Part shown: in pieces, positions 1,961 to 17,358 of the stretch
Numbering within the stretch: the stretch's first letter is position 1
How the letters are laid out: the number at the start of each line of letters is the position of its first letter
Virus record (IMG/VR): IMGVR_UViG_3300045988_025728
Location: 1-17,358 of that record
Source: a virus
Reading direction: 5' to 3' (one strand)
Length of the DNA stretch: 17,358 nt
Made by a program: the position numbers and the translations under genes
The notes under the pieces: generated by a model
Database searches by the model: none
Told to the model about the DNA's origin: nothing
The model's input: only the letters and a program-made list of their open reading frames with translations

Positions 1961-2398
1961 ATGGAAAACACCAACACCGCACTTGTCGCATTCAATACCG
2001 AATCCACCGAACTTGGTACCGTCCAGCATTTTATCGACACTTCCACCCGCGAAGGCAAGATCAAGCTCTACTCGGCATTGCAGAACGCCGAAAAGCTCGA
2101 CGAACACCTCAACGAATCGTTGAACATGGTGAACGCAGTCGCACAGGCCGTACAGGTCACGGATGATCAGACGGGCGAAATCTCCAACACCGTGCGTGTC
2201 ATCATCGTGACCGATGATAACAAGGCGTACGCGGCCACCTCCCCCACTCTCGCCGCTGGACTGAACACCATGTTCGGTATCTTCGGCACCCCGAACACTT
2301 GGGAAGCGCCATTGGCTATCAAGGTAGTGGAACGCCGTTCTCGTCGTGGCTTCAAGTTTTTCAGCATTGAGCCGGTGGACGGTCAGGAAACCAAGTGA
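1961..2398 (+). CDS. Putative phage single-stranded DNA-binding protein (145 aa)
   Basis: SD AAGGGAAGG (1943-1951) precedes the ATG. The sequence pattern (..TREGKIKLYSA.., ..TGEISNTVRVIIVTDDNKAYAATS.., ..FGIFG..) resembles the lactococcal/streptococcal phage SSB family as I recall it. The position matches phi29 gene 5. Confidence 0.4.
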   Translation: MENTNTALVAFNTESTELGTVQHFIDTSTREGKIKLYSALQNAEKLDEHLNESLNMVNAVAQAVQVTDDQTGEISNTVRVIIVTDDNKAYAATSPTLAAGLNTMFGIFGTPNTWEAPLAIKVVERRSRRGFKFFSIEPVDGQETK

Positions 2399-3475: not shown

Positions 3476-4927
3476 ATGGTAGTGCAGGATAATAGGGTGG
3501 GATTATGGTGTGCGGATAACGTCATACGATTCACGGGCGGAACCGCATTGCGTGATGTTGTCCAACCTAATCGCCTTTTGGCGTCCATCATGACAGGCGG
3601 CAAACTCACCGTCTACGTGACTAATCCAGATTTGCTCGACCCCTTTATAGCGCACGTCGTACACGCATTGCCCCACAACGAACACAACGCTAACCTGAGC
3701 TGGGATGCCATAGTGTCCAAAAAGGGAAAATTTTTCAGCTTCACGGTGCGTATCGACCGTAACAATTCCGCACGATTTTTCGACATTTCCAATCTCTTGC
3801 GGGAAAACTGCCGTCTCACCATGCCCGATGCCCAGCTACTCAATATTCTGCGCGAGTACGATAATCGCAACTTGTGCAAGATCACGGCAGGCGGCGCGAG
3901 CATGGAGGCTTTTGCGGCTGGTGAGTGGAAGTGGTATTACGACAAATTCCCCCAACTTGAGGAAGAGACTAAAAAGTCACTGCATGACGCCTATGTCGGC
4001 GGATTTATGATCGCAAAAGAAGGCATGTACGGTAAGGCTATCGACGTTGACTGCAACTCCATGTATCCGAGCATTCTACGGGATGAATGGCTTCCGTGGG
4101 GTGAACCCGAACCATACGAAGGAAAATACGAAGAAGATAGTAACATGCCATTGCATTGTGATGAACTCACGTTTCGCGCGGACCTCAAACCAAACGGATA
4201 CCCCTTTTTATTGGACAATCGCAGTGTCTACGGACTTAATAGGCTCACTTCCACCCGTGGCTACATCACCCGCGTATTGACTGACATAGATCAACAGCTT
4301 TTATACGAGAATTATGAAGTGAGCGTCTACAAGCATGTGCGAGGGTGGAAATTCCGCCGCTCCAAAGGCTTTTTCCGCTCGTTCGTGGACGAATGGGGAG
4401 GGTTAAAACAGAAGGCGACGGGCGAGAAACGGCAAATGGCGAAACTGATCATGAACGCTCTCGTGGGCAAAATGGCGAGTCTGCCCAAAGGTTCCGTCAT
4501 GCTCCCCACCTCAAAAGACGGCATTACCCTCGACTGGGATATTGCGCAACGTGAGGAATCGAATTTGAAAACCGATTTTCTCCCCGTGCCCGTATGGGTG
4601 AATGCTTACGCGAGAAAAAAGCTTATGACCGTCTGCCGTGCAAACTCAGATCGGCTACTATATGCCAATACGGACGGGTGCATATTGTCAGGTTGGGGGC
4701 CGGTGGAATCATGTGACATTCACCCGACTGAATTGGGTAAGTGGAAGATCGCCGCCCGATACGAAAAACTGACTATTCTCGGTATGAACCGGTATCAAGG
4801 ATGGAGAGCAGACGGGGAGGTTGACGTATGCATGGCCGGAAACATGTTCTCACAACCCATACCTTACGAAGATTTTCGACATGGGGTGCAGGTCATGGAT
4901 GATTACGGGACAATGGTCATGCTATAA
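3476..4927 (+). CDS. Protein-primed family-B DNA polymerase (483 aa, compact)
   Basis: Motif A is DVDCNSMYPS, pre-motif A is AYVGGF, motif B is KLIMNALVGK and motif C is LYANTDG. LPWGEPEPYEGKY parallels phi29 LPYGEPIVFEGKY, and ITAGGASMEAF parallels phi29 MTAGSDSLKGF. SD AAGGGAAG lies 7 nt upstream of the ATG. Confidence 0.9.
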   Translation: MVVQDNRVGLWCADNVIRFTGGTALRDVVQPNRLLASIMTGGKLTVYVTNPDLLDPFIAHVVHALPHNEHNANLSWDAIVSKKGKFFSFTVRIDRNNSARFFDISNLLRENCRLTMPDAQLLNILREYDNRNLCKITAGGASMEAFAAGEWKWYYDKFPQLEEETKKSLHDAYVGGFMIAKEGMYGKAIDVDCNSMYPSILRDEWLPWGEPEPYEGKYEEDSNMPLHCDELTFRADLKPNGYPFLLDNRSVYGLNRLTSTRGYITRVLTDIDQQLLYENYEVSVYKHVRGWKFRRSKGFFRSFVDEWGGLKQKATGEKRQMAKLIMNALVGKMASLPKGSVMLPTSKDGITLDWDIAQREESNLKTDFLPVPVWVNAYARKKLMTVCRANSDRLLYANTDGCILSGWGPVESCDIHPTELGKWKIAARYEKLTILGMNRYQGWRADGEVDVCMAGNMFSQPIPYEDFRHGVQVMDDYGTMVML

Positions 4928-4928
4928 T
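4920..4928 (+). promoter_or_regulatory. Candidate extended -10 promoter (TGCTATAAT) for the non-coding RNA
   Basis: TG-n-TATAAT overlaps the polymerase stop codon (TAA 4925-4927). The predicted start at about 4934-4936 coincides with the first base pairs of the RNA's closing helix. Confidence 0.5.
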
Positions 4929-4932
4929 GCCT

Positions 4933-5104
4933 ATTGTCTTCCTGAGCGTCGATTTTCGACTGGGAATAACACGGGTCGGACTGCCACGGCTGAGAATGCC
5001 GCCGACCGTGAAAATCACTATCGTGGCGGTAGTGCCCTACGATTTTCAACTCGCGCTCACATAAGACAGTTTCGACCCCGCGTGATTGCGGGGTCATTTA
5101 TTTT
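4933..5104 (+). ncRNA. Candidate structured non-coding RNA (about 170 nt), pRNA-like architecture
   Basis: No SD-preceded ORF lies inside. The closing helix pairs 4933-4940 with 5063-5070 and 4943-4950 with 5052-5059. Hairpin H2 pairs 4970-4979 with 5002-5010 and carries the bulge ACUGCCA. Hairpin H3 pairs 5011-5016 with 5041-5046 and has the apical loop GUGGC. Loop UGGC (5024-5027) is complementary to bulge GCCA (4983-4986). The unit ends in an intrinsic terminator. Folded by hand only. Confidence 0.5.
5074..5104 (+). terminator. Rho-independent terminator
   Basis: GACCCCGC (5074-5081), loop GTGATT, GCGGGGTC (5088-5095), then ATTTATTTT. Confidence 0.85.
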
Positions 5105-5115
5105 CTCCCGCCGCA

Positions 5116-5124
5116 TGATATAAT
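5116..5124 (+). promoter_or_regulatory. Candidate extended -10 late promoter (TGATATAAT)
   Basis: TG-n-TATAAT lies just after the terminator and about 40 nt upstream of the scaffold gene (SD GAAGGGAG, ATG 5163). Confidence 0.55.
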
Positions 5125-5162
5125 TTTGATGGAAACATTACCAATATGAAGGGAGCTTTTGT

Positions 5163-5447
5163 ATGGCAGACCCGAATAATGACGGCGAGGAAAACACTAC
5201 CCCACCGCCAACCGAAGAGGAACGGCAGACCCAGACCGTAGATGATGAGGTCAAGCCGAAAGAACCGGAACCGGAACCGAAGCAGGAACCGGACGTTTCC
5301 GCGCGACTTGACAGCATCGAAAAGGAATTGGCTACATTGAAGGCCATGATGGACACGCTCGGCTACAATGACCCCGCACCATCCGACAATGATAACGACG
5401 GCGACGGCGACGGCGACGGCGATTCCATCGAAGATTTGTTCAGCTAA
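5163..5447 (+). CDS. Putative scaffolding protein (94 aa, highly acidic)
   Basis: It lies directly upstream of the major capsid gene, as phi29 gp7 (about 98 aa) does. It has an acidic, Pro/Glu-rich N-terminus, a central helical segment (ARLDSIEKELATLKAMMDTL) and a DNDNDGDGDGDGD tail. Confidence 0.6.
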   Translation: MADPNNDGEENTTPPPTEEERQTQTVDDEVKPKEPEPEPKQEPDVSARLDSIEKELATLKAMMDTLGYNDPAPSDNDNDGDGDGDGDSIEDLFS

Positions 5448-5465: not shown

Positions 5466-7187
5466 ATGTCCAATATTCGACCATTGGCCGGTAAGGGTGA
5501 TGTTGAGATCTTCAACGCAGTCCGAAACGCAACCAGCCCCCAGTTTCAGACCCGTATTCCGAGCGCAACGCAGGGCAATATTCGCAACGCGGTAGACACT
5601 ATGCGCAATTTTCCGTATCTTCGCGACGAGTTTACGGGCGTGCTGATTCAGCGTCTTATCGGCCTGTACATTCAGCACGCTGATTGGGATGACCCGTTGA
5701 AGCTGATCGGCTCCCCACGCACACTCAAGCGCTACGGCTCCACTTATGAGCAGGCCGCAGTCGGCCTTGTCAAGGCACGCACCCGCAATTTCAACAAGGA
5801 ATACTTGGGCGATGACGTGTACGGCCGATACTCACTGCCAACCGCGTCGGTATTCCACCCGCTTACTTTTGACCATTATTATCCCGTCACTATTCCGGAA
5901 GACGCGCTGTTGACCGCTTTTGACGGCGAGTCCGGCATGAGCGACTACATTTCCGAGATCATGAACGCGCCTATCCTGAGTGATAGGAATGACATGTACT
6001 TGATGAAGACTCAGTGTTTCGCGGAGTATGCACGTAAGGGCGGCTTCTATCGAGTCCATACCCCCGACGTTGGCAAGGCGGATTCCACGGAAGTGGACGC
6101 AAAGGGATTGCTGCGCCTTATTCAACAGGTGGCGAACGAATTGAAGGCGTCCCCAATGTCGGCCATGCCGCGATATAACGCCATGAGCTGGGTGACACCG
6201 TGGCGCGATAGTGAAGCCATTCTGTTCGCTACCCCGCAGGTTATCGCCGCGTTGAACGTGGAAGCTCTCGCCGCCGCGTTTAACATCGATAAGGTCAATG
6301 TCCCATATCGTATTATCCCGGTCCCGGAAGACATGTTTGGTATTGGTGGACGGGGCGGTAAGGTGCAGGCCGTATTGACCACCGAAGACTTCTTCTTCTG
6401 CTGGGACGAGATGTTGGAAACTACTACTTCCCCCGTGAATCCGATTGACGGCACCCGCAATATCTTCTACAAGCATCGCGGTTCGATTACCCCTAATCCG
6501 TTCGCCAATGCCGTGCTGTTTTGGACGGGCGAAGGTTCCAGCGAGTCCGTGACATTGCCGGATACGCCCACCACCTCGAAGCCGGAATTTACCCTGCGCG
6601 TTATGAAGTACGGTCAACCTTCCATTACCCCCCAAAACGTGTCCCGTGGCGACTTGGTGCAGGTGAAGTCTGAAATTACGAGCGCAAATAAAGCCGAAGC
6701 ATCCTTCCAACCGGTCGGCATCACCTACGAGCTTGAGGGCGCAACCTCCCAGTTTACGACTATCGACAATGACGGTATTTTGCGTTGCGGACTGGATGAA
6801 ACCGCCGAAACCCTCAAGGTTACCGCTCAAGCAACCTATATCAACCCAGCCCACCCCGAGATCGACCAGACGGTTTCCGCCGCACTGTCCGTGCCGGTTG
6901 TCGGTGAATGGCTCGGCGGATGGAAGGTCGGAGCCATTGAATCCCTTGAAATCCAAGGCGAAAAGACGGTTAAGAATGGCGGGCATATCGCACTTAAGGC
7001 TATTGCCACCAAGACTGACGGCAACACGGCGGACGTGACCAATCTCGCCATGTGGTCGGTAGACCAGCACGCGACTATCACCCCTAACGGTGTATTGTCC
7101 GGAACCGGCGCAGGAGCAGCCAATGTTACTGCAAAATTTGCGGGAGCACAGGGAACGGCACAGATCACCGTCACCGTCACCGCCTAG
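5466..7187 (+). CDS. Major capsid protein, phi29 gp8-like, with C-terminal Ig-like (Big_2-type) domains (573 aa)
   Basis: Blocks match phi29 gp8 as recalled: EIFNAVRN/DIVNAIRN, DALLTAF/DSLKTAF, LAAAFNI/LAKAFNM, FANAVLFWTG/FANAVAFVSG. The C-terminus (..IALKAIATKTDGNTADVTNLAMWSVDQHATITPNGVLSGTGAGAANVTAKFAGAQGTAQITVTV) is a typical Big_2 repeat, and a second Ig-like segment lies upstream of it. Confidence 0.9.
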   Translation: MSNIRPLAGKGDVEIFNAVRNATSPQFQTRIPSATQGNIRNAVDTMRNFPYLRDEFTGVLIQRLIGLYIQHADWDDPLKLIGSPRTLKRYGSTYEQAAVGLVKARTRNFNKEYLGDDVYGRYSLPTASVFHPLTFDHYYPVTIPEDALLTAFDGESGMSDYISEIMNAPILSDRNDMYLMKTQCFAEYARKGGFYRVHTPDVGKADSTEVDAKGLLRLIQQVANELKASPMSAMPRYNAMSWVTPWRDSEAILFATPQVIAALNVEALAAAFNIDKVNVPYRIIPVPEDMFGIGGRGGKVQAVLTTEDFFFCWDEMLETTTSPVNPIDGTRNIFYKHRGSITPNPFANAVLFWTGEGSSESVTLPDTPTTSKPEFTLRVMKYGQPSITPQNVSRGDLVQVKSEITSANKAEASFQPVGITYELEGATSQFTTIDNDGILRCGLDETAETLKVTAQATYINPAHPEIDQTVSAALSVPVVGEWLGGWKVGAIESLEIQGEKTVKNGGHIALKAIATKTDGNTADVTNLAMWSVDQHATITPNGVLSGTGAGAANVTAKFAGAQGTAQITVTVTA

Positions 7188-7257: not shown

Positions 7258-9492
7258 ATGAGCGCAAACGATCTGCCCATCAATTTCAGTTACGCGAAAT
7301 GGACGCCAAACACACGTTTCAAGCTCTGCAATGTTCCGTGGGACATGGGCTATAGGGATATTGTCAAATGGGATAAAAACGCTCAGCAAGAGTATTTCAA
7401 CCGGCTGGACGGTATCGAATTTACGAATTGCACCATGTCAAAATATGGGTTGCCGGTGCGGTTGCCCATCCCGTTTGCTCAAGCGTGCCAATACAATTAT
7501 CTGATCGCTACGAACGACTATGATTTCGATACCCCCCGTAGTTGGTATTATTTCATTCAGACATGCGATTATGTTAACGCCAACACCACACAGTTGAATA
7601 TTCAGTTGGACGTGTGGCAGAGCTTCCAACATGATATTCAGCTTGGCAACGCCTACGTAGAAAGGGGACATGTGGGGGTTGCGAACGAAAACGCTTGGAA
7701 GGACTGGGGTAAAACCTATTTGGATCTGCCTGAAGGACTCGACACCGGCAAATGCACCGTGCTCACGAATGAGTCATGGCACCCATTAATGGGGGCTAAA
7801 TCAAACTCGGAATATTCCTACGGCATTATCATTGCCACCACCGTGAAGCTAGAAGCCGACGCCGGGAGTAAAGATAACCCTACTATTCAGAGCGCTACCG
7901 GAAGTACGTTTGAAAACCAGATGAACGGTACGGAACTGTACTATTTGGACAATACGTCCGATATTTTTAGATTTTTCGGGGCAGGGTCTACGAAACCGTG
8001 GGCTACACAAGGCATATGCGGGATTTACATGGTGCCGACCATTCCAACGAAAATGCTTGAAAATCATGCCGCCAAAAATCCGAAACTGTTCGGACAGGAT
8101 GTGCAATGGTCGGGGTCATGCTGGCTTTTGACGGGTAACGTTGCAAATTCTTCCGATAGGTATGAAGATATTATCGATATTAAGAATTTTCGTGACGCAT
8201 TCCAGATCCCCGCACGGTACAGGTATTTGAAGAAGTTCCTTACCGCCCCCTATGCTTATATCGAATGTTCATGCCTTAACGGGACCGTGATCACGTATGA
8301 GCCTGAGCAGATCCCCTCCGCTGATCTGATTATCCGCGAGTCATGGAATTACGCGCCACCATCCCCCCGCCTGAACTTCTACGCACGCGGCTACCATGCC
8401 GGAAACTTGGGCGAACGTCAGCCATTGCCGAATGGACTCGGTTTGCCTATCGATACGGGCGAAATGCTCAACGCATCCTTTGGTATCACCAATTTCCCTA
8501 CATTCATGGCCGTGAATAACGGTAGTGCCCTCGCTCTCGCCAACAGCGCGTACACGCGCCAATACGCCCAGCAAAGCGCTGACTGGGGGTATCAGAAAAC
8601 CCAAATGGGCATCAACAACGCTTACGCGCAGGCCCAGCTCGGCACCCAATACGCAAGTGCGCAAAACCGGCTCGGCACGTCCAACCGGAACGCCATGAAC
8701 GCGATCAGCAACCAGTCTGCGCAGATGGGTACCGACCTGACCTTGAAGAATCTTGGATTCAACAATCAAATGGCACAGCTTAATACGGTCGGAAGTGGTG
8801 TGGCGAACGCGGTCGGTTCAGCCGTCACCGGCAATATCGGAGGTGTGGCCGGTGCCATAGCGGGCACCGCGATAGGCGCATGGACGAACCAGCAAACCTA
8901 CAATAATAACGTGGGTACGGCCAATCAGCAGCTTGCGAACACGCAGACCACCAACAACGCCAGCACCTCACAGGCCAACGCCTACAGTCTCGCGCAAACC
9001 AATCTGTCCAACCAGCAGACCATGCAGTTTGCCGATATGAACAAACAGCTTGCGCAGGCGACGGCACAGGGGGATTACGAGAACACGATCGCCGGTATCA
9101 ACGCGCAGGTGCAGCAGACCCAGACCGTACCGCCCACCACGTCCGGCGCCTTGGGCGGTGACGCTTTCAACCTTGCAAACGGATTGATCGGTGTCATGGT
9201 CCGTTTCCGCCAGATTCCACCGGCCGCCATGCAAACCATCGGGGAAGTATGGCTAAGGTACGGCTACTATGTGCAACGGTTCATGAAACTTCCTGAAAAT
9301 CTTATGGCAATGAGCAATTTTACCTATTGGAAACTGCATGAATTGTATGTGCGTAGTTCGACGTGCCCAGAAGAATACCGTCTGACCGTCAAGGGCATTT
9401 TTGAAAGTGGCGTGACCGTGTGGACTGACCCCGACAAGATCGGCGTCACCGATTACGCGGACAATACGCCACTAGCCGGTATCGCATACTAA
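7258..9492 (+). CDS. Tail knob / distal tube protein, phi29 gp9-like (744 aa)
   Basis: N-terminal WYYFIQTCDYVNANTTQLNIQLDVWQSFQHDIQLGNAYVERGHV matches phi29 gp9 [45 protein letters not shown]. C-terminal LRYGYYVQR...GVTVWTDPDKIG matches HKYGYKINR...GITLWHTDNIG. An internal Gly/Ala hydrophobic segment (VGSGVANAVGSAVTGNIGGVAGAIAGTAIGAW) matches the gp9 membrane-active loop. Confidence 0.9.
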   Translation: MSANDLPINFSYAKWTPNTRFKLCNVPWDMGYRDIVKWDKNAQQEYFNRLDGIEFTNCTMSKYGLPVRLPIPFAQACQYNYLIATNDYDFDTPRSWYYFIQTCDYVNANTTQLNIQLDVWQSFQHDIQLGNAYVERGHVGVANENAWKDWGKTYLDLPEGLDTGKCTVLTNESWHPLMGAKSNSEYSYGIIIATTVKLEADAGSKDNPTIQSATGSTFENQMNGTELYYLDNTSDIFRFFGAGSTKPWATQGICGIYMVPTIPTKMLENHAAKNPKLFGQDVQWSGSCWLLTGNVANSSDRYEDIIDIKNFRDAFQIPARYRYLKKFLTAPYAYIECSCLNGTVITYEPEQIPSADLIIRESWNYAPPSPRLNFYARGYHAGNLGERQPLPNGLGLPIDTGEMLNASFGITNFPTFMAVNNGSALALANSAYTRQYAQQSADWGYQKTQMGINNAYAQAQLGTQYASAQNRLGTSNRNAMNAISNQSAQMGTDLTLKNLGFNNQMAQLNTVGSGVANAVGSAVTGNIGGVAGAIAGTAIGAWTNQQTYNNNVGTANQQLANTQTTNNASTSQANAYSLAQTNLSNQQTMQFADMNKQLAQATAQGDYENTIAGINAQVQQTQTVPPTTSGALGGDAFNLANGLIGVMVRFRQIPPAAMQTIGEVWLRYGYYVQRFMKLPENLMAMSNFTYWKLHELYVRSSTCPEEYRLTVKGIFESGVTVWTDPDKIGVTDYADNTPLAGIAY

Positions 9493-9537: not shown

Positions 9538-9549
9538 AGGACGGTGACC

Positions 9550-10488
9550 ATGGGTAAACGCAACAACGCGCGCAAGGCCGCACACTGGGACAATCAGAGC
9601 ATTTTAGGCTCAATGTGGGGCAATCTTAATCTGCCTGAAATGCGGCAGAGTCTCCGAATCAACCAGTATATGAAATTGATCGAAATGTTGGCGGTAAGTC
9701 GCTTTAAATGGATTAATCTACCCCCATATATTGATGAACGTTATCTAGAATTGACGCTTTTTGAAAACGGCCTAGCTCTCTTTTTCCCCGACAAACGCAA
9801 GGGCGTGAACCGTTTTATGGTCACGTCCGGCAATATCGGCGGCGTCAACAATTACAACAATCCGACCAGCTTTCAACCCGTCGCAACCGGCTACTCGCAC
9901 CCGCAGATCGGAAGCAAGGAATGCGTACCCATTTGGGACAATCAGCTTCGTTGCACAATGATTGACGTTATGTGGAATTACGCCACGCGATTGGCTATCG
10001 CAGACCGCGCGTTGGACGTGAATTTGGACAACATTAGCGTTCCACTGATTATCGCCACGTCCGAAACCAACAAATTGACCGCGCAAAATTTGATGAAGGC
10101 TCGTGAGGACGGCGATCCCTATATTTACGCCTACGATTCGGCGGACATTACAGGCATGTTCCAAACATTCCCCAACGTCACCCCTTTTCTTGCTGACAAG
10201 ATCATCACCACGAAAACCCAGATATGGAACGAACTCGTAAACTACTTGGGTATCGACAACAGCGCCACCGAGAAGAAGGAGCGGTTGCTTGAATCGGAAG
10301 TGACGGCAGGAAACTCGCGTACAAACGTGTTCCGCCTGAGCTACCTGAAATCACGTCAACAGGCGTGCGATACGATCAACCGACTGTGGCCGCAAATGGC
10401 CGACTCGGGATATCCCATCGGCATCGAATGGAACGACACCACGTCCGGTGGTCTATTGGATGTGGAAGGCAACAGGGAGGAAGAATAA
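9550..10488 (+). CDS. Portal / upper collar connector protein, phi29 gp10-like (312 aa)
   Basis: FKWINLPPYIDERYLE matches phi29 FEWENLPPTINPSFLE, KKERLLESEV matches KKERMVTDEV, and LKSRQQACDTINRLW matches LKSREEACEKINELY. ATG 9550 was preferred over GTG 9544 on SD spacing. Confidence 0.92.
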   Translation: MGKRNNARKAAHWDNQSILGSMWGNLNLPEMRQSLRINQYMKLIEMLAVSRFKWINLPPYIDERYLELTLFENGLALFFPDKRKGVNRFMVTSGNIGGVNNYNNPTSFQPVATGYSHPQIGSKECVPIWDNQLRCTMIDVMWNYATRLAIADRALDVNLDNISVPLIIATSETNKLTAQNLMKAREDGDPYIYAYDSADITGMFQTFPNVTPFLADKIITTKTQIWNELVNYLGIDNSATEKKERLLESEVTAGNSRTNVFRLSYLKSRQQACDTINRLWPQMADSGYPIGIEWNDTTSGGLLDVEGNREEE

Positions 10489-14908: not shown

Positions 14909-15976
14909 ATGGCATTGCGGACATTAGCCGAAGATGATTACTATGATCTGCATAATCTGCTCACCCGAAACGCCCCATGGAATTTCATTATCGGCGCACG
15001 AGGACTCGGCAAAACGTTCGCCGCCAAACGATACGGCATCAAAGAATACATCAAGCACGGTCACGAGTTCATTTATCTTAGGCGTACGGACGTGGAACAA
15101 CGCCGCAAGGAAACCTTCTTCAAAGACATTCAAGAGTTCTTCCCCTCGTACGAATTTCGTGTGAATGGTGAAAAAGGACAAGTACATAAGGCGTCATGGG
15201 ATGAAAAGGACTGGCGCACATGCTGTTATTTCGTCGCATTGTCACAGGCGGGCGGGCTGAAATCAGTGGCCTACCCTAAAGTGCACTTGATTATCTTCGA
15301 CGAAATTTTCCCCGATAACCTACGTTTTTTAAGCAATGAGGTAAATTCATTCTCGGAATTTTACAACACGGTTGACCGTTGGCAGGATAGAACAAAAGTG
15401 CTATTTTTATCTAACGCGGTGCAAAAAGCTAATCCATATTTTACGAAATACCGGCTTGATATTGGCGCACAGCAATCCAATCAACAGCAATACAAACTCT
15501 ACTGCGGTGGATTCGTATGTCTCGAATTGGCCGACTATGGCGGATTCTCAGCCAAAGTCGCACAATCAAAGTTCGGCAGATTCCTTGAACAGTATGACGG
15601 CGACTATGCGGATTATGCGATCAGAAACAAGTTCCGAGATGAATCGGACACGTTGCTAGCTCCCATACCGAGTGACGGCGAGCTCTCATATATTTTGGAC
15701 ACTACCGATTACGCTCGATTTGGTATATGGGTAAGTGTGTCCGAACGTGATGGACATGTTTCACAATATGTTTCACGACGTATCCCTAAAGACAATACTA
15801 GACCCGTCTACACGTTAGACCCCAATCATGTTGACGAAAAAACATGGTATGTCAAAAAATCAGATGATATCATAAGACGACTCACCACCGGCTACCGACT
15901 AGGTAAAATAAGGTTTGATGACTCACAGGTCAAGGCCGATTTTGGACTGATCATAGGTGAACTGTTAGGAAAATAA
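14909..15976 (+). CDS. DNA packaging (encapsidation) ATPase, phi29 gp16-like (355 aa)
   Basis: NFIIGARGLGKTFAAKRYGIKEYIKHGHEFIYLRR matches phi29 gp16 NFVIGARGIGKSYAMKVYPINRFIKYGEQFIYVRR (Walker A). Walker B is HLIIFDEIF. SD GGAGGTGA lies upstream. Confidence 0.93.
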   Translation: MALRTLAEDDYYDLHNLLTRNAPWNFIIGARGLGKTFAAKRYGIKEYIKHGHEFIYLRRTDVEQRRKETFFKDIQEFFPSYEFRVNGEKGQVHKASWDEKDWRTCCYFVALSQAGGLKSVAYPKVHLIIFDEIFPDNLRFLSNEVNSFSEFYNTVDRWQDRTKVLFLSNAVQKANPYFTKYRLDIGAQQSNQQQYKLYCGGFVCLELADYGGFSAKVAQSKFGRFLEQYDGDYADYAIRNKFRDESDTLLAPIPSDGELSYILDTTDYARFGIWVSVSERDGHVSQYVSRRIPKDNTRPVYTLDPNHVDEKTWYVKKSDDIIRRLTTGYRLGKIRFDDSQVKADFGLIIGELLGK

Positions 15977-15988
15977 GGAGAATAATAT

Positions 15989-16360
15989 ATGACAATGACA
16001 GCAACCGACGTATGGTGTGTGTTCGCGGTAGTCTTTTTTATCATTGTGGACTACGTGACCGGCATTGCAAAAGCCATTTTAAATGATACGCTCAGCTCCC
16101 AGAAAATGCGACAAGGATTATGGCATAAGTTCGCCTACCTTATGCTCACCCTAGTCGCCTATTTTATGGACATGATCAACCTACACGTAGATCTCGGATT
16201 GCCGGTCAGCGTATTCATATGCACCGTAGGCGGCATTAGCCTAATCGAACTCACCTCGATCCTTGAAAACATTACCGCCATCAACCCCGAACTAGCGGAC
16301 GCACCATTCATGAGCGTGTTCGCACAAACCAATACCCCCAAACACAAGAAGGAAAGCTAA
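15989..16360 (+). CDS. Holin (phage_holin_4_1 / TcdE-like family), 123 aa, three TM segments
   Basis: The family-typical motifs are IIVDYVTGIAKAI...S..MRQGLWHK and GISLIELTSILEN. There are three hydrophobic helices. It lies immediately upstream of the endolysin. SD AAGGAG. Confidence 0.85.
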   Translation: MTMTATDVWCVFAVVFFIIVDYVTGIAKAILNDTLSSQKMRQGLWHKFAYLMLTLVAYFMDMINLHVDLGLPVSVFICTVGGISLIELTSILENITAINPELADAPFMSVFAQTNTPKHKKES

Positions 16361-16361
16361 C

Positions 16362-17045
16362 ATGAACATCTCTGAATGGATGAACAACGTAAACGGAAAA
16401 ATCATCGACATGGACGGAGCATACGGCGGGCAATGCTGGGACCTATGGAGTTCATACGCGCGAAACGTATACGGCATTCCAGCAGCCGACACCAACACCG
16501 TAGACGGATACGCCGCAAGCGTCTACACCGCACGATATGACCGCTCCCGCGCATTGCAAAACACGTTCAATCGAGAGGGTGCCGACTATACGCCGGTTTA
16601 CGGTGACGTGGCATTTTGGAACGGCGCAGGCATGAACCATGTCGCAATTGTCGTTCGAGACAACGGCAACGGTACACTGGAAACCATGTCACAAAACCCG
16701 AACAAGGCCGAATACGTGACAATCAGCAAAAACGGCATTATCGGCTACTTCCACCCGCACTCAGCGAGCGCACCAGCGCCAGCACCAGCACCGGCAAACA
16801 ATAACGTGACCATCGTTCCACGCACCTACAAAGTCAACGTTGACACACTCAACGTACGCTCTGCACCCTCAGTCAATGCAGAAGTAGTAGCCCAGTATCA
16901 CTACGGACAGACAGTCAACCTATCCGAAGGCGGTGTGATCGCAGACGGATACATTTGGGCACACTACACAGGCGGCTCAGGCGCAACACGATACGTAGCA
17001 CTCGCACCCGCCGACAAATCAATGTGGTATCTCGTATTTGCCTGA
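16362..17045 (+). CDS. Endolysin: N-terminal CHAP amidase/endopeptidase, (AP)n linker, C-terminal SH3b cell-wall-binding domain (227 aa)
   Basis: The CHAP signature is DMDGAYGGQCWDLW (Cys25) ... NHVAIVV (His93) ... SQNP. The linker is SASAPAPAPAPA. The SH3b-like segment is YKVNVDTLNVRSAPSVNAEVVAQYHYGQTVNL..DGYIWAHYTGGSGATRYVA. The start lies 2 nt after the holin stop. Confidence 0.9.
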   Translation: MNISEWMNNVNGKIIDMDGAYGGQCWDLWSSYARNVYGIPAADTNTVDGYAASVYTARYDRSRALQNTFNREGADYTPVYGDVAFWNGAGMNHVAIVVRDNGNGTLETMSQNPNKAEYVTISKNGIIGYFHPHSASAPAPAPAPANNNVTIVPRTYKVNVDTLNVRSAPSVNAEVVAQYHYGQTVNLSEGGVIADGYIWAHYTGGSGATRYVALAPADKSMWYLVFA

Positions 17046-17058
17046 TTAGCGGTATAAG

Positions 17059-17088
17059 AAAGCCCCTAGGTTAGAACCTAGGGGCTTT
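17059..17088. terminator. Bidirectional intrinsic terminator between convergent genes
   Basis: Perfect 12-bp stem AAAGCCCCTAGG/CCTAGGGGCTTT with loop TTAGAA and A/T-rich flanks on both sides. It lies between the endolysin (+) and the right-end ORF (-). Confidence 0.85.
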
Positions 17089-17097
17089 AATTATTTA

Positions 17098-17328
17098 TCA
17101 GTCGCCATCATCAATCGAAACAGTATATTTACGGCACGGGCGACCTTTCTTGGAATAACCTTTAGCAACCATGTTGATATCATAATCGTTACTCAATAAA
17201 ACCTCCACAATAGTCTCAAGCGCTCTACGGAACGAAAGAGTTGCATGAAACATGCCACTAGGCTTCACACAGTCAGGCAAAATCTCAAACACCTGAAAAG
17301 TTTCATTAGTGATGATGAAATACCACAT
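17098..17328 (-). CDS. ITR-initiated early protein, right copy (76 aa), unknown function
   Basis: It has the same SD and ATG and the same first 30 aa as the left copy, all ITR-encoded. The C-terminus diverges (LSFRRALETIVEVLLSNDYDINMVAKGYSKKGRPCRKYTVSIDDGD). The total length is identical to the left paralogue. An alternative start lies at 17253. Confidence 0.55.
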   Translation of the reverse strand: MWYFIITNETFQVFEILPDCVKPSGMFHATLSFRRALETIVEVLLSNDYDINMVAKGYSKKGRPCRKYTVSIDDGD

Positions 17329-17358
17329 GTCAGTGCTCCTCCCCAAGTTCAACCAACT
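17240..17358. repeat. Right inverted terminal repeat (ITR), 119 bp
   Basis: Perfect reverse complement of nt 1-119. Confidence 0.97.

Follow-up and report, generated by a model that had tools for sequence, protein, structure and literature searches.

Packaging RNA (pRNA, or prohead RNA), demonstrated to date only in phi29-type Bacillus phages, is to our knowledge the sole RNA built into a viral DNA-packaging motor as a structural component, and has become a widely used building block in RNA nanotechnology. Relatives of the phi29 molecule occur in the Bacillus phages M2/Nf, B103, SF5 and GA-1. Reviews from 2016 (PMC5066667) and 2024 (PMC11476376) call pRNA unique to phi29 and related Bacillus phages, which agrees with the statement of an earlier note on the DNA analyzed here that it was known only from that group, with the caveat of an annotation in Actinomyces phage Av-1 that is considered below. 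A survey from 2025 added 12 further pRNAs, and the phage names quoted in its accessible text are all Bacillus or Cytobacillus (PMC12670572). A literature search, in which subscription journals were thinly covered and absence does not amount to proof, found no report of a pRNA in phages of Bifidobacterium, Arthrobacter, Curtobacterium or Microbacterium. The time at which pRNA arose and the way in which the nuclease-less ATPase docks in other phi29-like phages are questions raised in PMC7672431.

The window analyzed here is the whole 17,358-bp stretch of DNA from a phi29-like phage whose host is an actinobacterium (Bifidobacterium), in contrast to the Bacillus host of phi29. Between its polymerase gene and its late genes lies a segment that, in our judgment, probably encodes the pRNA of this phage.

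Genome context and transcription signals

The gene order in the window is SSB, a 332-aa ORF, polymerase, promoter and RNA, the RNA gene (4936-5104) being located at the boundary between early and late genes, just upstream of the late promoter. A phi29-type capsid protein, a tail knob, the SSB and a type-B polymerase are encoded, and the homologues of the gp10 connector and the gp16 ATPase that the earlier note had recognized were verified by their matches to PF05352 and PF05894, respectively (Table 1). [quoted passage not shown] The question of a packaging RNA can be tested directly, since BD811P1-3 (grown on Bifidobacterium dentium) and BP1 (grown on B. pseudocatenulatum) are available as cultured isolates.

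A separate transcription unit had been proposed at 4920-5104, in which a structured RNA lies between an extended -10 promoter and an intrinsic terminator, and all three components were confirmed at these positions. The extended -10 sequence, TGCTATAAT, covers the stop codon of the polymerase gene (TAA, 4925-4927), an overlap that had also been pointed out. The window contains five exact TGNTATAAT sites, this one among them, and all are on the + strand; 0.53 would be expected, and none of 200 shuffled sequences reached five. The promoter belongs to the standard type of the phage. Among 76 relatives this promoter is nearly invariant and the adjoining bases vary. Transcription probably starts at the conserved G4936, which would leave residues 4933-4935, originally drawn as part of the closing helix, upstream of the RNA. 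At the other end, the hairpin at 5074-5095 has 9 bp, seven of them G-C, and is followed by ATTTATTTT, as described previously for the terminator; its loop region, GUGAUUG (5082-5088), is invariant among the relatives, and its stem covaries (CG 55/UA 18; GC 56/CG 19). On the basis of these signals, the RNA gene would produce a discrete transcript of about 169 nt.

The region 4928-5162 had been regarded as the only long non-coding stretch of the genome. It is the longest internal gap, but the right end (17046-17358), which includes a 119-bp terminal repeat, is also poor in ORFs, and this part of the description does not hold. The absence of an ORF within the element does: coding potential was rejected, with stops in all six frames in 39 of the 76 relatives, and the element varies in length from 187 to 195 nt among them, with single-base indels.

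Table 1. Positions of the RNA gene, its structural elements, the neighboring promoter and the presumed protein partners in the window.
Feature	Position	Strand	Basis or detail
RNA-gene promoter, extended -10 TGCTATAAT	4920-4928	+	exact TGNTATAAT site
Domain I, 132 nt	4936-5067	+	probable start G4936 to end of closing helix
A (closing) helix, 5' strand	4936-4964	+	RNAalifold and covariation
A helix, 3' strand	5035-5067	+	5-nt bulge CAACU at 5047-5051
C/E arm	4970-5010	+	C helix, CE bulge, E helix, E loop
CE-bulge partner GCCA	4983-4986	+	complementary to D-loop UGGC 5024-5027
D arm	5016-5034	+	helix 5016-5022/5028-5034 (7 bp), loop GUGGC 5023-5027
Domain II / intrinsic terminator	5074-5104	+	stem 5074-5082/5087-5095, U-rich tail to ~5104
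Late (structural) operon promoter, second extended -10 TGATATAAT	5116-5124	+	directly 3' of terminator
Presumed partner, gp10-type connector	9550-10488	+	PF05352, E = 7.6e-40
Presumed partner, gp16-type packaging ATPase	14909-15976	+	PF05894, E = 3.2e-44, residues 11-342

Covariation and secondary structure of the RNA

The structured RNA claimed for this locus is borne out by its stability, its conservation and its covariation. RNAfold returned -68.2 kcal/mol for 4928-5104 (z = -3.9), with none of 200 shuffles folding as well, the element was present in all 85 of the related phage loci fetched, and compensatory changes were found in every helix and in the bulge-loop pair. The main alignment, made with MAFFT, comprised 76 distinct sequences; 95.6% of its cells pair, and two-sided changes occur in 24 pairs. 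In a wider set of 88 distinct sequences, including metagenomic and divergent members, 95.0% of the cells pair and 28 pairs are changed on both sides. None of 500 shuffled controls reached the observed level of pairing and covariation, and slid controls paired at 34-48% overall and at 35-45% in the 76-sequence alignment. The same helices were predicted independently by RNAalifold. A covariance model built in this work (R1) has one match in the window, at 153.8 bits, and the element occurs once per genome. At the paired positions there are 303 G·U cells versus 92 A·C cells, and 95.0% of the cells pair on the + strand versus 89.5% on the - strand. The more than threefold excess of G·U favors a + strand read as RNA; the - strand also folds well (z = -3.7).

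The closing helix drawn in the earlier note is supported by covariation, with a count of 15 rather than 16 bp because C4950 faces C5052 in its second segment. A better register for that segment leaves U4949 bulged and pairs 4950-4951 with 5052-5053, so that the outer part of the A helix consists of 4936-4940/5063-5067, 4943-4948/5054-5059 and these two pairs. Further inward follow A4952-U5046, 4956-4958/5040-5042 and GGG/CCC (4962-4964/5035-5037). The alternative register A4952-U5051 was dropped for A4952-U5046 with a 5-nt 3' bulge, because divergent members favor the latter. A mismatch block UUU/UUU (4953-4955/5043-5045) interrupts the helix and is replaced by Watson-Crick pairs in the divergent members L143, L231 and L238, for example GGCUGUUG/CAUUAGCC. 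As for the internal loops, ACU/UA (4959-4961/5038-5039) is highly conserved and CC/CAU (4941-4942/5060-5062) is variable.

The second hairpin originally proposed (4970-4979/5002-5010, a 7-nt bulge ACUGCCA and an inner CGGC/GCCG stem) is backed by covariation and forms the C/E arm. Its C helix (5 + 4 bp) pairs 4970-4974 with 5006-5010 and, beyond the bulged G4975, 4976-4979 with 5002-5005, and seven of these nine pairs have changes on both sides. The CE bulge lies on the 5' side (4980-4986), and the 4-bp E helix (4987-4990/4998-5001) and its loop UGAGAAU (4991-4997) are nearly invariant. Of the third hairpin, the inner stem and the loop GUGGC are supported by covariation, but the outer helix 5011-5016/5041-5046 was rejected, as just 83% of its cells pair and many are gaps; instead, residues 5035-5046 pair with 4952-4964 and extend the closing helix. 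With C5016-G5034 included, the remaining D helix comprises 7 bp; all seven pairs have changes on both sides, and 100% of the cells pair.

The complementarity between GCCA in the bulge and UGGC in the hairpin loop, a central claim of the earlier note, is present and covaries. Its outer pair, G4983-C5027, is GC in 69, GU in 11 and AU in 8 of the 88 sequences, never A·C and never unpaired, and a neighbor-joining tree requires at least six changes on one side and at least seven on the other. The terminal A-U pair of this 4-bp interaction is mismatched in 8 of the 88.

Comparison with phi29 pRNA and with other actinobacterial phages

The covariation-supported fold nearly superimposes, helix by helix, on the consensus structure that Rfam gives for phi29 pRNA. 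In both RNAs an A helix formed from the 5' and 3' ends closes a three-way junction, and the D helix is joined to it by a zero-nucleotide linker. Domain I measures about 120 nt in phi29-type pRNA and 132 nt in the window. The C helix is built alike, with 5 bp, a 1-nt 5' bulge and 4 bp; the CE bulge is confined to the 5' side, with a continuous 3' strand, and measures 9 nt in phi29 and 7 nt in the window RNA; and the E helix has 4 bp in both, capped by a U/purine-rich loop of 6 nt (UUGAGU) in phi29 and 7 nt (UGAGAAU) here. The D helix has 6 bp in phi29 versus 7 bp, and its loop has 5 nt in both, of which the last four are Watson-Crick complements of the 3' bases of the CE bulge, a complementarity that covaries as in phi29-type pRNA. 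Both junction linkers measure 5 nt in the window RNA and are longer than those of phi29, which have 1 and 3 nt, the latter being the C-to-D linker. Total lengths are similar, 174 nt for phi29 and about 169 nt predicted for the window, with a dispensable-type 3' domain, and a promoter and terminator of its own are common to both genes, in the window as sequence signals. On the other hand, the kissing sequence is GCCA/UGGC in place of the AACC/GGUU of phi29, and the A helix contains the UUU/UUU block and the conserved ACU/UA loop in place of the CCA bulge. This bulge, an essential site at which gp16 docks in phi29, is absent from the equivalent position, and the CC/CAU and ACU/UA loops are candidate counterparts located elsewhere in the helix.

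Read in the direction of early transcription, the phi29 order is SSB (gene 5), TP (gene 3), polymerase (gene 2), gene 1, promoter A1 and pRNA, and the RNA gene comes after the polymerase gene in both phages. The phi29 gene occupies the left genome end. In the window, early and late genes share one direction, which places the RNA gene mid-genome. Nothing pRNA-like was found by Rfam or R1 at the genome ends of the window.

As the earlier note had anticipated, the Rfam pRNA model (RF00044) has no match in the window at its gathering score (100 bits), nor in 4850-5200 even at E <= 10; as a positive control, it finds phi29 pRNA at 145.4 bits. Conversely, R1 gave no significant match in phi29, Av-1 or BadAztec, and a misregistered, non-significant match of 7.6 bits inside phi29 pRNA, obtained with filters off, is not counted as evidence. 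Homology thus rests on architecture and context and not on sequence. Other Rfam matches, to CRISPR-DR10 (E = 0.13), anti-hemB and Leu leader, fell on the terminator hairpin at chance level. A hand-written descriptor of the pRNA layout found phi29 pRNA and the window RNA, but it also gave seven spurious hits elsewhere in the window, and in five other phage genomes all of its hits fell in coding regions; it was discarded as too unspecific, as was a scan for hairpins resembling the E loop.

Arthrobacter-type phi29-like phages (Mendel, Anjali, Swim, Tillums and soil contigs) carry a structured RNA upstream of the late operon, positioned as in the window, just before the scaffold gene and followed by a terminator. 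The topology is the same: the A helix is long, the C helix carries a 5' bulge of 6 nt, the E helix has 4 bp and the loop UUGAAU, and the D-hairpin loop AGC(U) complements the bulge (A)GCU. This complementarity is mostly of 3 bp and almost invariant in a sample of only 12 sequences. R1 matches these RNAs weakly, on the module of bulge and E hairpin. Unlike the window RNA, they have an interrupted D helix and an RHH gene between the polymerase gene and the RNA, and no clear promoter of their own was seen. The Arthrobacter-type RNA appears to be a looser relative of the window RNA.

The Av-1 genome (NC_009643) includes a misc_RNA feature at 16295-16402 labeled 'packaging RNA' by unverified annotation. 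Av-1 is likewise an actinobacterial phi29-like phage, but the feature occupies a different genome position, overlapping ORFs B and C near the right end, and has no similarity to the window RNA. The annotated region folds weakly (-21.4 kcal/mol for 161 nt) and matches neither Rfam nor R1. The gap after the Av-1 polymerase gene was also considered and set aside, as it holds a real-looking RHH ORF and a unit of about 70 nt with a terminator, too short for a pRNA-like fold. In the gap considered in BadAztec1 and BadAargau2, two closing helices are backed by compensatory changes, and the comparison of these two sequences yielded no definite inner fold; one apparent covariation needs a 2-nt register slip.

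A proposed packaging role and its alternatives

If the segment encodes a pRNA, host RNA polymerase would start near G4936 from the promoter at 4920-4928 and stop at the terminator, giving an RNA of about 169 nt made up of domain I and the terminator hairpin as domain II. Domain I would fold into a three-way junction bearing the C/E and D arms, its 5' and 3' ends being joined in a long, irregular A helix. By analogy with phi29, the RNA would bind the prohead and act in DNA packaging, which would require it: the CE-bulge GCCA of one molecule would pair with the D-loop UGGC of the next, and the RNAs would close into a prohead ring around the basic N-termini of the gp10-type connector. Their outward A helices would dock the gp16-type ATPase, which by itself would be unable to attach to the connector. 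The RNA would serve during packaging only and be absent from the virion. The intermolecular pairing on which such an oligomeric ring depends is likewise put forward by analogy, since evidence from sequence does not distinguish it from an intramolecular pseudoknot.

That last point is common ground with the strongest alternative, a structured small RNA with another job, such as control of the early-to-late switch or regulation of a host target, in which the bulge and the loop would pair within one molecule as a pseudoknot stabilizing a compact fold; the sequence fits both kinds of pairing alike. Such a role would suit a gene that marks the very boundary of early and late genes and directly precedes the late operon, and an RNA with no sequence similarity to pRNA. 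We nevertheless consider it unlikely, as the full helix-by-helix layout of phi29 pRNA would need to have arisen by chance in a phage that has both types of pRNA-binding protein, and at the syntenic place after the polymerase gene. Moreover, no extended single-stranded seed region is conserved, and the unpaired bases that are most conserved are found in small loops and bulges of the kind that usually makes protein or tertiary contacts.

The element could also be a structured 3' UTR and insulator of the early operon, shielding the polymerase mRNA from 3' exonucleases and blocking run-on into the late genes. A strong terminator does come after it, and read-through transcripts carry it because the polymerase stop codon lies inside the promoter. 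However, the terminator hairpin alone would suffice for this purpose, and a promoter of its own, a covarying three-way junction of 132 nt and a covarying tertiary pair would all be left unexplained, which makes the proposal distinctly improbable.

We give even less weight to an antitermination RNA that would act in cis, in the manner of put from phage HK022, and would modify RNA polymerase started at 4920 to pass the terminator at 5074-5104 and continue into the late genes. The order of promoter, structured RNA, terminator and late genes matches the put layout, and both are phage-encoded structured RNAs between a promoter and a terminator. The put RNA, however, consists of two plain stem-loops that act in cis on RNA polymerase, with neither a three-way junction nor a loop-bulge pair, it has no link to packaging proteins, and genes downstream of a put-type element lack a separate promoter; the window RNA folds into a three-way junction with a tertiary pair, matches no Rfam family, and is followed, right after the terminator, by a separate conserved promoter of the same type. 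A DNA-level element (a cruciform, a single-strand DNA structure or a protein-binding site) could draw on the folding of the - strand but is scarcely credible given the excess of G·U over A·C, the shared orientation of promoter and terminator, and the 119-bp terminal repeats of a genome in which protein-primed replication, starting at the ends, needs no internal origin.

Returning to the packaging RNA, we raise the further possibility, at slightly less than even odds, that pRNA is no peculiarity of Bacillus phages but an ancestral component of the packaging motor in phi29-like podophages (protein-primed, gp16-type) that has diverged past sequence recognition, and that RNA-dependent docking of the ATPase is general among them. 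In actinobacterial lineages the pRNA gene would then close the early operon and directly precede the late genes, and these lineages would comprise the human-gut Bifidobacterium phages, probably the BadAztec-type phages of honeybee Bifidobacterium, and the Arthrobacter-type soil phages.

A pRNA-shaped RNA in a Bifidobacterium phage suggests a wider occurrence of RNA-dependent DNA packaging than has been assumed. If this is true, the RNA-bridged motor would be old and widespread, reaching into a distant actinobacterial lineage, its essential features would be those common to two families without sequence similarity, and these phages would offer a new natural set of self-assembling RNA scaffolds.

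Genome context and transcription signals

The window is bounded by perfect inverted terminal repeats of 119 bp (1-119 and 17240-17358), and is thus a complete, linear, protein-primed-type genome; all of its genes lie on the + strand. Its nearest deposited relatives, Bifidobacterium phages BP1 and BD811P1-3 and one human faecal contig, show 74-83% DNA identity, and their records leave the interval from the polymerase gene to its downstream neighbour without annotation. For this interval an earlier note had proposed a non-coding, self-contained transcription unit. The promoter TGCTATAAT is present as described, at 4920-4928, overlapping the polymerase stop codon, and the G+C-rich hairpin at 5074-5095 has 9 bp and is followed by ATTTATTTT. 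The non-coding nature of the region is borne out by stops in all six frames in 39 of 76 relatives, with single-base indels giving lengths of 187-195 nt.

Exact TGNTATAAT extended -10 sites occur five times in the genome (254, 2402, 4920, 5116 and 14783, each on the + strand), where 0.53 would be expected, a count reached by none of 200 shuffles; this is therefore the promoter type of the phage, and the RNA has its own copy. A second such promoter directly after the terminator (5116-5124) serves the late genes. The sites are located at the early-gene start, in the gap before a 332-aa ORF, at the RNA gene, at the late operon and in the gap before gp16, and probably represent the full promoter set of the phage.

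The loop region of the terminator hairpin (domain II of the RNA), GUGAUUG (5082-5088), does not vary among 76 relatives, in which the stem covaries, so that this hairpin may do more than end transcription. A CRISPR-DR10 match from Rfam over the hairpin (5069-5107, - strand; 18.5 bits, E = 0.13) was weak and single-copy, and was judged to be due to chance.

Structure and covariation of the RNA

RNAfold assigned -68.2 kcal/mol to 4928-5104, compared to -51.4 ± 4.3 in shuffled sequences (z = -3.9; 0/200). A capsid-protein search of IMG/VR provided 80 loci (84-98% identity), and the element was found in 85 of 85 related loci. RNAalifold was applied to a MAFFT alignment (A2) of 76 distinct sequences, which was then scored for both our model (see table) and that of the earlier note. 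With our model, 95.6% of 4026 cells were standard pairs, and changes on both sides were seen in 24 of 53 pairs (136 cells), none of these measures being reached in 500 shuffles; moving the 3' partners by 1-3 columns left pairing at only 35-45%. Searches of IMG/VR and metagenomes with R1, a covariance model of domain I (4936-5067), brought in further members, including the divergent loci L143, L231, L238 and L218 at 78-98 bits. The alignment of 88 distinct sequences (A5), fitted to the model and thus ranked as supplementary to A2, which is unbiased, was 95.0% paired, with both-side changes in 28 of 44 pairs (0/500 shuffles). G·U cells outnumber A·C cells (303 vs 92), identifying the + strand read as RNA as the better-paired strand (95.0% vs 89.5% for the - strand). 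We regard it as practically certain that the element is a structured RNA.

Features of the genome and of the RNA
Feature	Position	Strand	Remarks
phi29-type SSB	1961-2398	+	Pfam
Type-B polymerase	3476-4927	+	Pfam
phi29-like major capsid protein	5466-7187	+	Pfam
Tail knob	7258-9492	+	Pfam
gp10 connector	9544-10488	+	Pfam, E = 7.6e-40
gp16 encapsidation ATPase	14909-15976	+	Pfam, E = 3.2e-44
A helix, outer	4936-4940/5063-5067	+	then internal loop CC/CAU
A helix, second segment	4943-4948/5054-5059; 4950-4951/5052-5053	+	U4949 bulged
A helix, 3' bulge CAACU	5047-5051	+	then pair A4952-U5046
A helix, three U·U oppositions	4953-4955/5043-5045	+	
A helix, inner	4956-4958/5040-5042; 4962-4964/5035-5037	+	second part GGG/CCC
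A helix, internal loop ACU/UA	4959-4961/5038-5039	+	highly conserved; three bp below junction
Linker AAUAA	4965-4969	+	
C helix	4970-4974/5006-5010; 4976-4979/5002-5005	+	G4975 bulged
CE bulge ACUGCCA	4980-4986	+	
E helix	4987-4990/4998-5001	+	loop UGAGAAU, 4991-4997
C-to-D linker	5011-5015	+	
D helix	5016-5022/5028-5034	+	loop GUGGC, 5023-5027
D-to-A junction	G5034/C5035	+	directly abutting, 0 nt between
Linker	5068-5073	+	then terminator hairpin, U tract

One helix of the earlier model did not hold: the outer part of the D arm, drawn as 5011-5016/5041-5046, was paired in just 83% of cells, with many gaps, and is superseded by a continuation of the A helix, where compensatory changes from U-A to C-G and from G-C to A-U are seen in L058. 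The UUU/UUU block, a tandem of U·U oppositions conserved in most members, gives way to Watson-Crick pairing in the divergent L143, L231 and L238 (GGCUGUUG/CAUUAGCC; GCCGCUG/CAUCGGC), implying that the A helix is one continuous irregular helix. In phi29, gp16 is docked by a CCA bulge, for which the ACU/UA internal loop of the A helix is a candidate equivalent. Within the E loop, the unpaired positions 4994/4997 were G..U in 59 sequences, A..C in 23, G..C in 4 and never A..U (UGAGAAU vs UGAAAAC); being only two bases apart they are not a hairpin pair, and the pattern may reflect common descent or a constraint that is tertiary or mediated by protein.

The complementarity between GCCA in the bulge (4983-4986) and UGGC in the D loop (5024-5027) stands as the earlier note proposed it. 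Tallied over 88 sequences, the bulge/loop combinations were the standard GCCA/UGGC (58), the compensatory ACCA/UGGU (7), GCCA/UGGU (10) and GCUA/UGGC (4), both with G·U, and ACCG/UGGUU (1), with mismatches confined to the terminal A-U pair (GCCU with UGGC or UGGU, 6; GCCA/CGGC, 2). The outer pair was GC in 69, GU in 11, AU in 8 and never A·C, with at least 6 independent changes of the bulge base and at least 7 of the loop base on a neighbour-joining tree from which these columns had been left out. These patterns are good evidence that bulge and D loop base-pair, and would fit pairing inside one molecule or between molecules alike.

Comparison with phi29 pRNA

RF00044, the Rfam family of phi29 pRNA, detected phi29 pRNA at the left end of its genome (145.4 bits), which served as positive control, and gave no match in the window; the consensus structure strings of the two RNAs almost coincide. 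The C helix layout is identical (5 bp, 1-nt 5' bulge, 4 bp), the E helix has 4 bp in both, the D loop 5 nt (U-GGUU in phi29, G-UGGC here), and no nucleotide separates D from A. The RNAs differ in the length of the CE bulge, which in both lies on the 5' side only (9 nt in phi29, 7 nt here), and in the E loop (UUGAGU, 6 nt; UGAGAAU, 7 nt), the C-to-D linker (3 and 5 nt) and the D helix (6 and 7 bp). In both, the 3' part of the CE bulge supplies the pairing partner for the final four D-loop bases, and the RNA is about 170 nt long with a 3' domain past the A helix.

Gene order along early transcription also agrees (6, 5 [SSB], 4, 3 [TP], 2 [pol], 1, promoter A1 and pRNA in phi29; SSB, 332-aa ORF, pol, promoter and RNA here), the mid-genome rather than left-end location being explained by inversion of the phi29 early module relative to the late genes. 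RKR residues at the N-terminus of the phi29 connector are required for pRNA binding, and the connector N-terminus of the window (9550-9580) is similarly basic (MGKRNNARK, compared to MARKRSNTYR). Basic N-termini also occur in BadAztec1 (MSRRNAKR) and Curtobacterium phage Reje (MSNKRTRK), and were not seen in Mendel, Voltaire or Av-1.

The earlier statement that pRNA is known only from Bacillus phages agrees with reviews from 2016 (PMC5066667) and 2024 (PMC11476376), which, on present knowledge, restrict it to phi29 and related Bacillus phages, and with the quoted part of a 2025 Infernal-based survey that added 12 pRNAs, where all phage names are of Bacillus or Cytobacillus phages (PMC12670572). 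One exception stands in the GenBank record of Actinomyces phage Av-1 (L088:16295-16402), where a feature overlapping ORFs B and C is labelled, unverified, as 'packaging RNA'; its weak fold and lack of a match to Rfam or R1 make this annotation look doubtful. Literature searches covering phages of Bifidobacterium, Arthrobacter, Curtobacterium and Microbacterium yielded no pRNA report, and neither Rfam 15 nor the searched literature contains the window RNA.

Interpretation and possible relatives in other phages

The most economical reading makes the RNA this phage lineage's pRNA, and as far as sequence analysis reaches the pRNA-like interpretation is supported; we consider a packaging function fairly probable. 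It would be either a phi29 pRNA homologue too diverged to be recognised by its sequence or an analogue very close in function. A regulatory small RNA, whose internal pseudoknot would be formed by bulge-loop pairing inside one molecule, is unlikely, and a structured 3' UTR or insulator is distinctly improbable. Antitermination of the put type is highly improbable, and a DNA-level element is scarcely credible. All four leave unexplained why the RNA should match pRNA in such detail in a phage with both pRNA partners.

BadAztec-type phages, which infect Bifidobacterium asteroides (gp16 43-44% identical), have a gap of 178 nt in the corresponding position, between polymerase and scaffold genes (BadAztec1, L087:12680-12870, - strand; L090). 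It contains a TGCTATAGT promoter, a terminator, a closing helix GUGAGCG/CGCUCAC that resembles UGAGCG/CGCUCA of the window, and CGUA-UUAAGU-UACG as an E-like hairpin. Two helices show compensatory changes between the two available genomes, and the element is probably a relative of the window RNA. In Arthrobacter-type phages (Mendel, L331:4934-5075; Anjali, Swim, Tillums) and in soil contigs, a roughly 100-nt RNA with a terminator behind it lies immediately ahead of the scaffold gene (L331, L333-L335, L339-L354). Folding 12 sequences with RNAalifold showed covariation in the outer A helix and the C helix, a 6-nt 5' bulge, a hairpin CCCC-UUGAAU-GGGG (UUGAGU in the phi29 E loop) and a D-hairpin loop AGC(U) complementary to (A)GCU of the bulge; with filters off, R1 gave weak matches (6-7 bits, E ~0.5-1) on the bulge/E-hairpin module in three of these loci. 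This would be a second, looser pRNA-like family. Together, and on thinner evidence than that for the window family, these elements suggest that pRNA-like RNAs are more widely spread among actinobacterial phi29-like phages, and existing phage isolates allow the window RNA to be tested directly.
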